24,000 nucleotides of DNA, taken from positions 462,851 to 486,850 of the forward strand of contig NC_006908.1 in NCBI RefSeq assembly GCF_000008365.1. The letters are read 5' to 3'. This document shows, in pieces, positions 1 to 12,063 of this stretch. How positions within the stretch are numbered: the stretch's first letter is position 1; each line of letters opens with the position of its first letter. Both the position numbers and the translations under genes were made by a program. The notes below the pieces were generated by a model that was not told the origin of the DNA, did not search any database, and worked only from the letters and a program-made list of their open reading frames with translations. The DNA comes from Mycoplasma mobile 163K (GTDB lineage Bacteria > Bacillota_I > Bacilli_A > Mycoplasmatales > Metamycoplasmataceae).

Positions 1-182
1 TTTCAAAATGGCATTTTTCTTGCTTGCTCTATTGAACCAACTACTATAGCTATTTTCTTATTTTTAGGGCGATTTTTTAACTCATAGAGTAAATTAGGAT
101 TTTCATGATGGATACTAATTCCAATTCCTGTTACTGTATCTGTTGAAACAATAAAAACATCTTTAAATTTATTCATATTCAT
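1..182 (-). CDS. tsaC: L-threonylcarbamoyladenylate synthase, TsaC/YwlC/Sua5 family (N-terminal ~60 codons; gene runs off the left edge)
   Basis: Minus-strand ATG at 182..180 (second ATG at 176). Translation MNMNKFKDVFIVSTDTVTGIGISIHHENPNLLYELKNRPKNKKIAIVVGSIEQ matches the family N-terminal pattern (PTDTVYGLG ... K.RP..KPL.v.v.s.eq). The part of track ORF 3..362 upstream of 182 is low-complexity and overlaps fpg, so I do not count it as coding. Confidence 0.6.
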
Positions 183-8657: not shown

Positions 8658-8684
8658 ATAGTGGCAAAAAGTGGGAGAAAGTGG
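8658..8684 (+). promoter_or_regulatory. MraZ operator: three direct heptamer repeats with 10-bp periodicity
   Basis: ATAGTGG (8658..8664) caa AAAGTGG (8668..8674) gag AAAGTGG (8678..8684), followed by the mraZ ATG at 8686. Matches the mollicute MraZ site described as AAAGTG[G/T] repeats with 3-nt spacers, and the GTGG(G)-repeat operators of other bacteria. Confidence 0.7.
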
Positions 8685-8685
8685 A

Positions 8686-9126
8686 ATGTTTGGATCATAT
8701 GAAAAAACTTTAGATTCTAAAAATAGATTAGTTATTCCATCTAAATTCAGAGATGAACTTGGTGAAACATTTTACATTACACTTGGTTTTGAAAAATCAC
8801 TTGAATTTAGGAGTAAAAAATCTTTTGAAGAATTTAGTAATAAAATCAGTTCAAACAATTTACTTGATTCAAAAATGAGAGAATTAAGTCGTTATATTTT
8901 TGCAAACACTATTGAAGTCAGTTCAGATAAATTAGGTAGAGTTATTATTTTGGATAACTTATTAAAAAAAGCTGAAATTGAAAAGGATGCTGTTATTGTC
9001 GGTGTTGGTAATAAGGCTGAATTATGATCAAAAGAAAAATTTGAAAAAATTACAAATATATACGAAAATGAAGAGAACATTAAAAAATTAACACAAGAAT
9101 TATTTGAAAAAGGTGCAGTTTTATAA
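8686..9126 (+). CDS. mraZ: Transcriptional regulator MraZ
   Basis: MFGSYEKTLDSKNRLVIPSKFRDELG... with two DxxxR-type (SpoVT/AbrB-like) half domains (LDSKNRLVIP, SDKLGRVII). The track ORF stops at TGA 9025..9027; reading it as Trp extends to TAA 9124..9126. I prefer the ATG at 8686 over the GTG at 8671 because homologs begin MF.G. Confidence 0.92.
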
Positions 9127-10034
9127 TGGAATCAAATGTTCATATTCCTATACTGTTAAATGAAGTTTTGAGTGCTTTTAATTTGAAAGAAACAGATGTT
9201 GTTATTGATCTTACTTTAGGAAGAGCTGGCCATTCTCAAGAAATGCTAAAAAAAATTCCAAAAGGTTTATTAATTGGAATTGATAAAGATAAAAGTGCAA
9301 TCACATTTTCAAAAGAAAAATTAGAACAAATTGGAAGTAATTTCAAATTGTTTCATAGTGATTTTAGTAAAATTTCTGACTTATTAAAAGAATTGAAAAT
9401 TTCAAAAGTAAATGCAATTTTAATTGATTTAGGAATATCATCACCTCAAATTGACAATGCTAATAGGGGATTTAGTTATAACAAAGAATCAAGACTAGAC
9501 ATGAGAATGAATTTAGACCAAAAATTAGATGCACATTTTATTGTAAATAGTTATTCAGAAGAGCAATTAAAAAATCTTTTATATAGGAATGCAGAAATAA
9601 AAAATTCAAGACAAATAGCAAAAATTATTACTTCTAATAGGCCAATTGAAACGACTTTACAACTGAGTGTAATTCTAAAAAAATACTTGCCTGCTTTTAT
9701 TGTTAGAAAAAAAGACCCAAGTAAAGCAGTATTTCAAGCATTGAGAGTTGAAGTTAATGATGAGATAAATTCTTTAAATTTTCTTTTAAAAAATCTAGTT
9801 TCAATACTTGAAGAAAATGGAAAAGTTGCAATCATCACCTTTAACTCAATTGAAGATCGAATTGTTAAAAAATATTTTGGAAGTTTTATAAAAGATGATG
9901 TTCTAGCATTTTTACCAACTAAAAAAGAAAAAGAATTTGAAGTAAAAACTTACTTGCCTTCAAAAAAAGAATTAGAAGAAAATCCAAGATCAAAAAGCGC
10001 AAAAATGCGAGTATTAAAAAAGATAGAAAGGTAA
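9126..10034 (+). CDS. rsmH: 16S rRNA (cytosine1402-N4)-methyltransferase RsmH (MraW)
   Basis: Intact 302-aa ORF. HIPILLNEVL, DLTLGRAGHS (SAM motif), DLGISSPQID, RGFSY..., FNSIEDRIVK, SAKMRVLKK are classic RsmH blocks. The ATG overlaps the mraZ stop (TAATG). Confidence 0.95.
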   Translation: MESNVHIPILLNEVLSAFNLKETDVVIDLTLGRAGHSQEMLKKIPKGLLIGIDKDKSAITFSKEKLEQIGSNFKLFHSDFSKISDLLKELKISKVNAILIDLGISSPQIDNANRGFSYNKESRLDMRMNLDQKLDAHFIVNSYSEEQLKNLLYRNAEIKNSRQIAKIITSNRPIETTLQLSVILKKYLPAFIVRKKDPSKAVFQALRVEVNDEINSLNFLLKNLVSILEENGKVAIITFNSIEDRIVKKYFGSFIKDDVLAFLPTKKEKEFEVKTYLPSKKELEENPRSKSAKMRVLKKIER

Positions 10035-10038
10035 AAAA

Positions 10039-11229
10039 ATGACAAAAAAAATAAATGCAATAGTAATTCTTCAAGCAAACAAAATTGAACTAAGAATTAT
10101 GGAGACATTTGAAAAAAGAATTTTTCAAATATATTCATCTAGCTGTGATGAAGATTCAAAATATTCAAAATTTATCTCTGAATCTATTATGCAAGTTAAT
10201 AAAAAGTTTTCTTTGAATATTAAAGAAATTGTTTTTGTCATTTTAATTGCCAAAGGAATTAAATTAAACTTGGAAAAAAGATTTTCAACAATTGAAGTGA
10301 ATGGAAAAATCTCACTTGAACACATTGAAAAATCAATTAAAATTGAAAAAGATTCTTTAAAGCAAAATGACCAAGTAGCTATTCTATCAAGACCTTATAA
10401 ATATGAAGTTCTTTCTAAAAATGATCAAATCGCAACTTTCAATGAAGTACCTTTAGATATAGAGGCAAAAGAATTAAAAACCTATAGTGTTGTATCACAT
10501 ATTAGTTCAAGTATTTATAATTATATTATTAACCTTTGTGAAAATGCAAACATTACTTTAAAAACTATCGTTACAGATTCTCATTTAAACCAATATTTAT
10601 TAGACAACAATAGTTTTTTAATTGAAAATAAAGAAAAATCTCTTATAAACATTAATGAAGAAAGTGTAACAATCAACATTTATAATAACAATGTTTTAAT
10701 AGATTATCACATTTTATCTTTTGGGACAAAATATATTTATGAGAAAATTTTCAAAAATCATGATTCAATAACTTCTGAAGAGGCTAAGAAAATTTTTAGT
10801 ATTTACACTGATTTTAATAAGTTCAATAGTGAAAAGCAAGTTGCATTGAATTCTAATTTAACTTTAAAAAAATTGAATCAATATACGCTACTTTTTTTTG
10901 AAAAGATTTTTGAAGAATTTAATAAAAAATTTTCGCTTGTTTCAAGAGATACAATTTATTTAACAGGTGAAGGTTCTTCAATTTTAGATCTTGAAAAAAT
11001 TATTAATTCTAATTTTGAAAAAAATGGAATTGATACAAAATGCCATGTTAATAGTTTTATTACATACCAACTTCTAAATGAAGAAAAAAATTCCTACATG
11101 GCTACAAAATATATAAATAGTATGATAGATACTAAAATGGAAAATAATTTTCTAATTACAAAACCATTAAAAATATTGCAAACATATGAGTTTATTTCAA
11201 ATACTTCTGAAAATTACTTAATTTCTTAA
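10039..11229 (+). CDS. Divergent FtsA-like (actin/HSP70-fold) protein, third gene of the mollicute mraZ-rsmH cluster
   Basis: Intact 396-aa ORF, 4 nt after rsmH, with an AAAGG RBS. Weak similarity only: IYLTGEGSSILDLEKIINSNF resembles FtsA vvLTGGga.l.gl.el.e..f. The N-terminal INAIVILQANKIELRI sits where FtsA has the DIGTSK phosphate-1 motif. The position matches the unknown or ftsA-like gene that precedes ftsZ in other Mollicutes. Confidence 0.5.
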   Translation: MTKKINAIVILQANKIELRIMETFEKRIFQIYSSSCDEDSKYSKFISESIMQVNKKFSLNIKEIVFVILIAKGIKLNLEKRFSTIEVNGKISLEHIEKSIKIEKDSLKQNDQVAILSRPYKYEVLSKNDQIATFNEVPLDIEAKELKTYSVVSHISSSIYNYIINLCENANITLKTIVTDSHLNQYLLDNNSFLIENKEKSLININEESVTINIYNNNVLIDYHILSFGTKYIYEKIFKNHDSITSEEAKKIFSIYTDFNKFNSEKQVALNSNLTLKKLNQYTLLFFEKIFEEFNKKFSLVSRDTIYLTGEGSSILDLEKIINSNFEKNGIDTKCHVNSFITYQLLNEEKNSYMATKYINSMIDTKMENNFLITKPLKILQTYEFISNTSENYLIS

Positions 11230-11242
11230 AAAAATAAAAAAT

Positions 11243-11265
11243 GCAAGATTCATCTTGCTTTTTTT
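11243..11265. terminator. Rho-independent terminator between the ftsA-like gene and the convergent tRNA-Phe
   Basis: GCAAGATTCATCTTGC hairpin (11243..11258) followed by TTTTTTT and preceded by an A-run, so it could act in both directions. Confidence 0.65.
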
Positions 11266-11279
11266 GACCTTTATAGATA

Positions 11280-11355
11280 TGGTGGCTCCGGCAGGAATTG
11301 AACCAGCGACACACGGAGCTTCAATCCGTTGCTCTACCGACTGAGCTACAGAGCC
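11280..11355 (-). tRNA. tRNA-Phe (anticodon GAA)
   Basis: Reverse complement GGCTCTGTAGCTCAGTCGGTAGAGCAACGGATTGAAGCTCCGTGTGTCGCTGGTTCAATTCCTGCCGGAGCCACCA. Cloverleaf with anticodon loop TTGAAGC; CCA encoded; one U-U mismatch in the T stem. Confidence 0.9.
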
Positions 11356-11358
11356 AAA

Positions 11359-11435
11359 TGGCGGTCCAGACGGGGTTCGAACCCGCGATCTCCTCCGTGA
11401 CAGGGAGGCGTATTAAACCACTTTACCACTGAACC
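11359..11435 (-). tRNA. tRNA-Asp (anticodon GTC)
   Basis: Reverse complement GGTTCAGTGGTAAAGTGG...CCTCCCTGTCACGGAGG...GCGGGTTCGAACCCCGTCTGGACCGCCA. Anticodon loop CTGTCAC; 7-bp acceptor stem; CCA encoded. Confidence 0.9.
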
Positions 11436-11437
11436 AT

Positions 11438-11512
<75 letters not shown>

Positions 11513-11535
11513 ATATTATTTTTTTGTGTAAATTC

Positions 11536-11564
11536 ATTATAGCAAAAATAAAAATATTTGTAAA
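11536..11564 (-). promoter_or_regulatory. Internal promoter for the fMet-Asp-Phe tRNA unit
   Basis: Minus strand reads TTTACA (11564..11559), a 17-nt spacer, then TGcTATAAT (extended -10, hexamer 11541..11536), about 24 nt upstream of the tRNA-fMet 5' end. Confidence 0.55.
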
Positions 11565-11586
11565 TTTTTTTGAAATTTATTTAAAT

Positions 11587-11617
11587 AAAAAAATTCAACA
11601 AATATTGAATTTTTTAT
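11587..11617 (-). terminator. A/T-flanked hairpin downstream of tRNA-Ser (possible weak terminator)
   Basis: AAAAAAATTCAA-caaata-TTGAATTTTTT. Inverted repeat with an A-run on one side and a T-run on the other. The stem is almost entirely A/T, so it is weak. Confidence 0.35.
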
Positions 11618-11631
11618 GGTGATATAACAAA

Positions 11632-11722
11632 TGGCGGGCAATGAGGGATTCGAACCCCCGCGAGTTTTACCTCCTGACGGTTTTCAAGACCGTTCCCTTC
11701 AGCCAGACTTGGGTAATTGCCC
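11632..11722 (-). tRNA. tRNA-Ser (anticodon TGA)
   Basis: Reverse complement GGGCAATTACCCAAGTCTGGCTGAAGGGAACGGTCTTGAAAACCGTCAGGAGGTAAAACTCGCGGGGGTTCGAATCCCTCATTGCCCGCCA. Type II tRNA with long variable arm; anticodon loop CTTGAAA. Confidence 0.9.
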
Positions 11723-11726
11723 TTTT

Positions 11727-11803
11727 TGGTAGTCCTAGCTGGGATTGAACCAGCGACCTCACGATTATAAGTCGTGTGCTCTAACCGACTGAGCTATAGG
11801 ACC
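11727..11803 (-). tRNA. tRNA-Ile with UAU anticodon (genomic TAT)
   Basis: Reverse complement GGTCCTATAGCTCAGTCGGTTAGAGCACACGACTTATAATCGTGAGGTCGCTGGTTCAATCCCAGCTAGGACTACCA. Anticodon stem CACGA/TCGTG; 7-nt loop CTTATAA, so positions 34-36 = TAT (plus-strand 11767..11769). The body is Ile2-like. It lies in the Met-Ile-Ser slot of the conserved cluster. Confidence 0.85.
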
Positions 11804-11826
11804 ACAAAGACGGTGCCTTTAGTATA

Positions 11827-11903
11827 TGGTAGCTCCGAAGAGAGTCGAACTCTTGACCTTTCGGGTATGAACCGAATGCTCTAACCAGCTGAGCTACAGA
11901 GCC
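11827..11903 (-). tRNA. Elongator tRNA-Met (anticodon CAT)
   Basis: Reverse complement GGCTCTGTAGCTCAGCTGGTTAGAGCATTCGGTTCATACCCGAAAGGTCAAGAGTTCGACTCTCTTCGGAGCTACCA. Anticodon loop TTCATAC; position 1-72 is paired (G-U), so it is not an initiator. Confidence 0.8.
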
Positions 11904-11908
11904 ATATA

Positions 11909-11985
11909 TGGTGGAGAGGAAGGGATTCGAACCCTCTACCTCCTGCGTGCAAGGCAGGCGCTCTAGCCAAGTGAGCTACCCCCCC
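11909..11985 (-). tRNA. tRNA-Ala (anticodon TGC)
   Basis: Reverse complement GGGGGGGTAGCTCACTTGGCTAGAGCGCCTGCCTTGCACGCAGGAGGTAGAGGGTTCGAATCCCTTCCTCTCCACCA. Anticodon loop CTTGCAC; G3-U70 alanine identity pair present. Confidence 0.9.
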
Positions 11986-11986
11986 A

Positions 11987-12063
11987 TGGTGAAGAAGACA
12001 GGATTCGAACCTGCGACCACTTGGTCCCAAACCAAGTGCTCTACCAAGCTGAGCTACTTCTCC
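11987..12063 (-). tRNA. tRNA-Pro (anticodon TGG)
   Basis: Reverse complement GGAGAAGTAGCTCAGCTTGGTAGAGCACTTGGTTTGGGACCAAGTGGTCGCAGGTTCGAATCCTGTCTTCTTCACCA. Anticodon loop TTTGGGA; CCA encoded. Confidence 0.9.

Follow-up and report, generated by a model that had tools for sequence, protein, structure and literature searches.

The gene at 11727..11803 on the minus strand of the window, by which we mean the whole stretch of 24,000 nucleotides of Mycoplasma mobile 163K DNA analysed here, is a genuine tRNA-Ile with a hard-wired UAU anticodon. Leaving the mutational route aside, we are nearly certain that it is the single AUA-decoding tRNA-Ile of M. mobile, located in the cluster slot of tRNAIle2 and carrying an anticodon arm of the tRNAIle1 type. 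The gene is already known, being the tRNAIle2(UAU) of M. mobile 163K described by Silva 2006 and Taniguchi 2013. The main interpretation of the initial annotation, which had placed a tRNA-Ile(UAU) under a heavy ATA load in the slot that holds a CAU gene in related mollicutes, was right and is supported by the analysis.

The tRNA-Ile(UAU) gene and its cluster

ARAGORN, run as a check on the gene call, predicted a tRNA of 77 nt, including an encoded CCA, at 11727..11803 (-) with an intact cloverleaf and the anticodon tat, corresponding to T34 A35 T36 at 11769..11767 (-) (position 35 of the gene in the ARAGORN numbering), which reads AUA. The Rfam tRNA model RF00005 matched all 8 tRNAs of the cluster and gave its top score to the Ile gene (74.9 bits, E=5e-15, model positions 1-71 complete), and the minimum free energy fold of the 77-nt RNA was a cloverleaf with the anticodon stem CACGA/UCGUG and the loop CUUAUAA. 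The extent, stem and loop that had been read from the letters alone are correct. In the numbered sequence the tRNA shows G1.U72, A73, C4-G69, U12-A23 and C29-G41. The isoleucine identity set, reportedly defined by Nureki in 1994, is said to comprise A73, C4-G69, U12-A23, C29-G41, A35, U36, A37 and A38, and the window tRNA carries every one of these elements. When it was aligned with 6 other tRNA-Ile genes, standard pairs were found at 21 of 21 positions in all seven (147/147 cells), with changes on both sides at 10 of the 21 pairs; since all pairs are intact, the window gene is not a decaying pseudogene.

The gene is the fourth of eight tRNA genes that run along the minus strand from 12063 to 11280 in the order Pro(tgg), Ala(tgc), Met(cat), Ile(tat), Ser(tga), Met(cat), Asp(gtc), Phe(gaa), the same eight genes and order that had been proposed for the cluster. 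According to ARAGORN, tRNA-Pro(UGG) at 11987-12063 and tRNA-Ala(UGC) at 11909-11985 are the first and second genes, elongator tRNA-Met(CAU) at 11827..11903 lies directly upstream of the Ile gene and tRNA-Ser(UGA) at 11632..11722 begins 4 nt downstream of it, followed by the initiator tRNA-fMet with its C1xA72 mismatch (11438-11512), tRNA-Asp(GUC) (11359-11435) and tRNA-Phe(GAA) (11280-11355), all on the minus strand. The 3' CCA is genomically encoded in 8 of 8 cluster tRNAs (11280-12063). Only two CAT tRNAs are present in the window, the elongator Met with the loop TTCATAC and the initiator with C1xA72; both are of the Met type, and a CAU-type tRNA-Ile2 with the loop CTCATAA is absent from the window. 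The cluster holds 2 CAT genes in the window versus 3 in relatives.

Several further elements of the region were recorded. An AT-rich spacer of 119 nt (11513-11631) divides the cluster between Ser and fMet and contains a promoter-like site at 11536..11564 (-), consisting of TTTACA, 17 nt and TATAAT with a TG and matching the consensus at 11 of 12 positions; at the same place the spacer measures 72 nt in Mycoplasma iguanae and merely 6 nt in the uncultured contig L125. Past tRNA-Phe, a candidate terminator, the hairpin GCAAGAT/GAAT/CTTGC followed by a T-run, lies at 11243..11258 (-). For both elements a function is assigned here from the consensus match and is putative. Beyond the terminator, on the opposite strand, comes a 396-aa gene in the position of ftsA (10039-11229) with no Pfam match, preceded by mraZ (8671-9126) and rsmH (9126-10034; RsmH is AAT27866); the terminator and the tRNA cluster come directly after this gene, and ftsZ is missing at this place. 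The order mraZ-rsmH-ftsA-like-ftsZ was found in M. iguanae, M. molare and two uncultured relatives (contigs L121, L122, L123 and L124), and no tRNA cluster was found near it in the relatives examined. A Sua5/YrdC-family gene and rpiB lie at the left edge of the window and just past it (window 1-176 (-); contig L252, 340-1244). TsaC, a protein of t6A synthesis, belongs to the Sua5/YrdC family, and t6A37 is the sole reported anticodon-loop modification of tRNA-Ile(UAU).

Identity with the published tRNA and decoding of AUA

The window proteins AAT27866, AAT27867 and AAT27873 match M. mobile 163K entries exactly, and the window DNA showed 0 mismatches over 6,627 bp with the 7.7-kb Logan contig L252, which carries the DprA gene of the window. 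The tRNA itself was compared with the published molecule. tRNAIle2 purified from M. mobile 163K contains an unmodified U34, t6A37, partial m7G and Psi55, and its RNase T1 fragments were reported as 31-41, which holds the anticodon and whose parent ion was at m/z 1218.49, as well as 54-64 (PMC3575796). Cutting the window tRNA in silico after each G yielded the same fragments, 31-41 (ACUUAUAAUCG) and 54-64. For ACUUAU(t6A)AUCGp with a 3' phosphate at z=-3 we predicted m/z 1218.489, to be compared with the published 1218.49, while the alternative versions of the 31-41 fragment would give 1218.161 with C34 and 1260.859 with lysidine. The agreement in fragment positions and mass with PMC3575796 identifies the window gene as the molecule studied there, and the experimental precedent in M. 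mobile that the initial annotation had named is accordingly this very gene.

The published work also describes the setting in which this tRNA operates. The M. mobile genome is without a tRNAIle(CAT), tblastn at E<=1 with TilS of M. pulmonis as the query found nothing in it, and tilS is missing between pth and ftsH (Silva 2006, PMC1635315); among the scanned proteins of the window alone, we found none of the PF01171 type. The IleRS of M. mobile accepts UAU through Arg865, which occupies the position of Trp905 in E. coli, and E. coli IleRS acquires UAU acceptance with the substitution W905R (PMC3575796); the ileS gene lies outside the window. On M. mobile ribosomes the tRNA reads AUA and not AUG, whereas on E. 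coli ribosomes both are read (PMC3575796). Loss of TilS correlates with the change of anticodon (Grosjean 2014, PMC4014445).

The demand on this tRNA was estimated from codon counts in 20 CDSs of the window (7,054 codons). ATA occurs 198 times, or 28.1 per 1000, which makes it the ninth commonest codon; it accounts for 25% of the Ile codons and is twice as frequent as ATG, in line with the heavy ATA load that had been expected. Trp is encoded by 43 TGA and 6 TGG, and it takes a code with TGA as Trp to obtain long ORFs. In the same codons CGG is absent (0) and AGA occurs 147 times; the G+C content of the window is 20-31%. The use of TGA and the G+C content mark the source as a mollicute.

In the functional explanation that we hold to be nearly certain, tRNA-Ile(UAU) would be transcribed from the eight-tRNA cluster along with the tRNAs for Pro, Ala, Met and Ser. 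In the published experiments on M. mobile 163K it keeps U34 unmodified and receives t6A at position 37, and M. mobile IleRS charges it owing to Arg865, at a site where other bacterial IleRSs have a Trp stacking on the wobble base; on M. mobile ribosomes, unlike those of E. coli, it decodes AUA without AUG. The tRNA stands in for the lost system of TilS and tRNAIle2(CAU-to-lysidine), from the slot where related Metamycoplasmataceae keep the CAU gene, and its body, chiefly the anticodon arm, has been rebuilt to the tRNAIle1(GAU) type. No observation speaks against this functional assignment. That the gene might instead be a redundant or inactive copy, with AUA read by another tRNA, deserves practically no credence, and nothing was found in its favour: the gene scores highest of the cluster with Rfam, its cloverleaf is perfect and held by compensatory changes, ATA ranks ninth among the codons in use, the genome is without tRNAIle(CAT) (PMC1635315), and such a reading is refuted by the published data, in which the tRNA was purified from cells and aminoacylated in vitro (PMC3575796).

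Origin of the UAU anticodon

The slot was compared with those of relatives. A search with translated frames of the tRNA cluster gave 5 matches, among them L125 and a Firmicute-like contig, L127, and Obg-based synteny starting from L125 recovered the cluster in M. iguanae (CP102734, L249 15179-15917); the same synteny gave no cluster for M. molare, M. lagogenitalium and M. hyorhinis. L125 has 27% G+C, uses TGA as Trp and is Metamycoplasma-like by its Obg, which is 70% identical to that of Metamycoplasma hyosynoviae. M. iguanae presents Pro-Ala-Met-CAT-Ser-fMet-Asp-Phe and L125 the same order, and in both the fourth gene is a tRNAIle2 with the loop CTCATAA. In L127 the series Ala-Met-Ile2(CAT)-Ser-fMet-Asp-Phe is embedded in a larger array that also holds Ile(GAT). 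The TAT gene of the window fills the Met-X-Ser slot of these three clusters, and since the relatives have a tRNA with the CTCATAA loop at the fourth place, the M. mobile gene sits at the position of the lysidine tRNA. The M. iguanae and L125 clusters thus bear out the initial annotation as regards the slot. One side observation concerns the initiator tRNA of M. iguanae (L249 15684-15759), where A1 stands opposite A72 (AGCGGAG...CTCCGCAACCA), in contrast to the usual C1xA72 of M. mobile and L125.

Among the 8 tRNAs of this conserved cluster none is less conserved than the one in the slot, with 59/74 identities to its M. iguanae orthologue, while its 7 neighbours are 84-100% identical (Pro 74/74 or 100%, Ala 96%, Asp 73/74), and the elongator Met shares 93% with the same-slot Met of M. 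iguanae and 92% with its L125 counterpart. The 15 differences fall at positions 3, 17, 27, 28, 31, 34, 39, 42, 43, 44, 57, 59, 67, 70 and 72, that is, 14 beside position 34, and they include 3 of the 5 anticodon-stem pairs, swapped on both sides. The Ile2 arm ACCGG/CCGGT with C44 is identical across M. iguanae, L125 and L127, and this invariance makes the change of the arm in M. mobile exceptional. Against the Firmicute/mollicute Ile2 arm ACCGG-CTCATAA-CCGGT-C the window tRNA agrees at only 10 of 16 arm positions; its arm is instead that of tRNAIle1(GAU), GCA-CACGA-CTNATAA-TCGTG-AGGTC, with T34 in place of G34. A metagenome search with AGAGCACACGACT-N-ATAATCGTGAGGTC, leaving position 34 free, found at least 120 loci; in the 120 matches listed G34 was present in every case, ARAGORN called tRNA-Ile(gat) in each, and 110 adjoin a tRNA-Ala(tgc), which is the rRNA-spacer pair. 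A scan of viral contigs for this arm combined with A34, C34 or T34 found none.

Resolved by region, the window tRNA matches distant Ile1 genes, all taken from unrelated bacteria, at 16/16 positions of 27-43 (excluding 34), at 5/5 of 44-48 and at 60-62/73 in total. With the Ile2 of M. iguanae the corresponding values are 10/16, 4/5 and 59/73, along with 19/20 at 8-26 and 15/17 in the T arm, where the stem GCTGG/CCAGC is identical; the same-family Ile2 totals are 59/73 and 53/73. L127 has both types, and of these Ile(GAT) is the closer to the window tRNA, with 81.8% identity as against 70.9% for Ile2(CAT). We also scanned genome contigs for a permissive Ile2 pattern with Y34 and unconstrained stems, which gave at least 120 matches; those listed are non-mollicute, with no Mycoplasma, and among the 120 listed 117 have C34 and 3 have T34. 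An A31-U39 pair, suggested as an Ile2 hallmark by proteobacterial and Bacteroidota matches, was rejected, as mollicute and Firmicute Ile2 have G31-C39.

Two routes fit these sequence comparisons: C34 may have changed to T in place, with convergent remodelling after the TilS constraints had gone, or the arm or whole gene may have been replaced by, or converted from, a copy of tRNAIle1 and G34 then changed to T. The former was the proposal of the initial annotation and is also the model of Taniguchi 2013 and of Grosjean 2014. On this view the resident tRNAIle2(CAU) would have undergone C34-to-T and the rest would have drifted or adapted later. It accounts directly for the slot, which is that of the CAU gene in the conserved eight-tRNA cluster of M. 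iguanae and L125, and for the close match to M. iguanae Ile2 at 8-26 and in the T arm with its identical stem, and release from the constraints of TilS and of MetRS discrimination would account for faster change. What it explains less well is that the slot tRNA has diverged so much further than its neighbours, that an otherwise invariant Ile2 arm has had 3 of 5 pairs swapped on both sides and position 44 changed, and that the outcome is exactly an Ile1-type arm; the step from the Ile2 arm to the window arm takes 7 changes plus C34T, and that from a Firmicute Ile1 arm 2 plus G34T. We consider this route quite possible, if on balance somewhat doubtful. The slot orthology behind the proposed C34-to-T34 change holds, but a simple single change is not secured, given the 14 further differences and the Ile1-type arm.

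For the alternative raised by Silva 2006, that the tRNA or its arm came from tRNAIle1(GAU) by duplication-replacement or gene conversion before G34-to-T, we see an even chance. The complete identity at 27-43 (excluding 34) and 44-48 with the rRNA-spacer tRNAIle1(GAU) points to it, as do the search with N34 free, in which the matches listed were G34 in 120 of 120 and beside tRNA-Ala(UGC) in 110, the totals for distant Ile1 genes, which equal or exceed those for same-family Ile2, and the ranking of the two types in L127. Silva 2006 itself found the M. mobile tRNA more similar to tRNAIle(GAT) (PMC1635315), and the B. subtilis tilS suppressor, as cited in PMC3575796, is a GAT-to-TAT change in an Ile1 gene. 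Against this stand the genomic position, which is the Ile2 slot and not an Ile1 locus, the T stem and D arm, which also suit M. iguanae Ile2, and the origin of the compared Ile1 genes, which come from unrelated bacteria; convergence under selection by IleRS or the ribosome is possible as well. Horizontal acquisition of a TAT gene, for example from a phage tRNA array, with displacement of the resident gene, appears very improbable. The word 'acquisition' stands in the abstract of Silva 2006 (PMC1635315), and metagenomes do contain phage-like arrays with Ile(tat) beside Ile(gat) (L143, L162, L235). However, the bodies of those Ile(tat) genes are unrelated, the M. mobile gene lies precisely within a conserved cluster with conserved spacing, and the lack of viral contigs with this arm and A, C or T at 34 makes a phage source unlikely.

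The specific proposal that we put forward, tentatively and a little short of an even chance, is that the M. mobile tRNAIle(UAU) is no point mutant of the lysidine tRNA but a hybrid or replacement in which an Ile1(GAU) arm or whole gene was put into the Ile2 slot by gene conversion or replacement and the switch was G34-to-U. The likeness to Ile1 fits poorly with the C-to-U model that Taniguchi 2013 and Grosjean 2014 favour (PMC3575796, PMC4014445). If the hybrid or replacement proposal is true, TilS became dispensable by the route of the B. subtilis laboratory suppressor, Silva 2006 would be reconciled with synteny and the C-to-U model of the later papers would be corrected.

Comparison with known systems

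The window gene does not differ from the M. mobile 163K tRNAIle2(UAU) of PMC1635315 and PMC3575796, which is the same gene. A hard-wired UAU tRNA-Ile shows that there is a substitute for the essential TilS/lysidine system, provided IleRS and ribosome co-adapt, a point already made with this gene in 2006 and 2013 and to which we add nothing new. The disagreement between the slot, which says Ile2, and the anticodon arm, which says Ile1, bears on how an organism escapes from an essential tRNA-modifying enzyme.

Compared with the bacterial system of tRNAIle2(CAU-to-lysidine) and TilS, represented by M. iguanae and the L125 slot, the window tRNA has the same AUA-reading job and the same cluster position, and shares C4-G69, C5-G68, the D arm and the T stem. 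It differs in having T34 and not C34, so that lysidine is not needed, in 3 of the 5 anticodon-stem pairs and position 44, and in belonging to a genome without TilS (PMC1635315). With the canonical tRNAIle1(GAU) of rRNA-operon spacers it is identical at 26-48 bar position 34 (in 120 of the 120 matches listed) and has the same IleRS identity pairs; unlike that tRNA, it has UAU and reads AUA rather than AUU/AUC, and its gene lies outside an rRNA spacer and is not in the Ile-Ala orientation beside tRNA-Ala. The B. subtilis tilS-suppressor tRNAIle1(GAT-to-TAT) of Fabret 2011, as far as it is described where PMC3575796 and PMC3919564 cite it, resembles the window tRNA in combining an Ile1-type body with UAU and reading AUA without TilS; on the same accounts, it is a laboratory mutation in an Ile1 locus, whereas the window gene occurs naturally, is fixed and occupies the Ile2 slot.

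Some Ile(tat) genes from other sources were recorded during the searches. Three Patescibacteria/Parcubacteria metagenome-assembled genomes have a tRNA-Ile(tat) (L033 979-1053, L092 1996-2072 and L075 2982-3057) whose D and T arms are Ile2-like, the only T34 genes among the 120 genome matches listed, and in L075 two CAT tRNAs lie about 500 bp from it. Dense tRNA arrays in metagenomes (L143 815-1117, L235 861-1288 and L162 45-192), with Ile(tat)-Ile(gat)-Met(cat)-Leu and others, are mostly without encoded CCA and resemble phage tRNA arrays; there the Ile(gat) has the anticodon arm of the window tRNA and the Ile(tat) does not.

A hard-wired UAU is also found in the tRNA-Ile(UAU) of hemoplasmas, Bifidobacterium, Neorickettsia and Patescibacteria, with tilS present or absent (PMC3575796). 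These are independent lineages with different tRNA bodies, and their IleRS solutions differ from that of M. mobile: the Trp site holds Lys or Leu, or the IleRS is of the eukaryote type.
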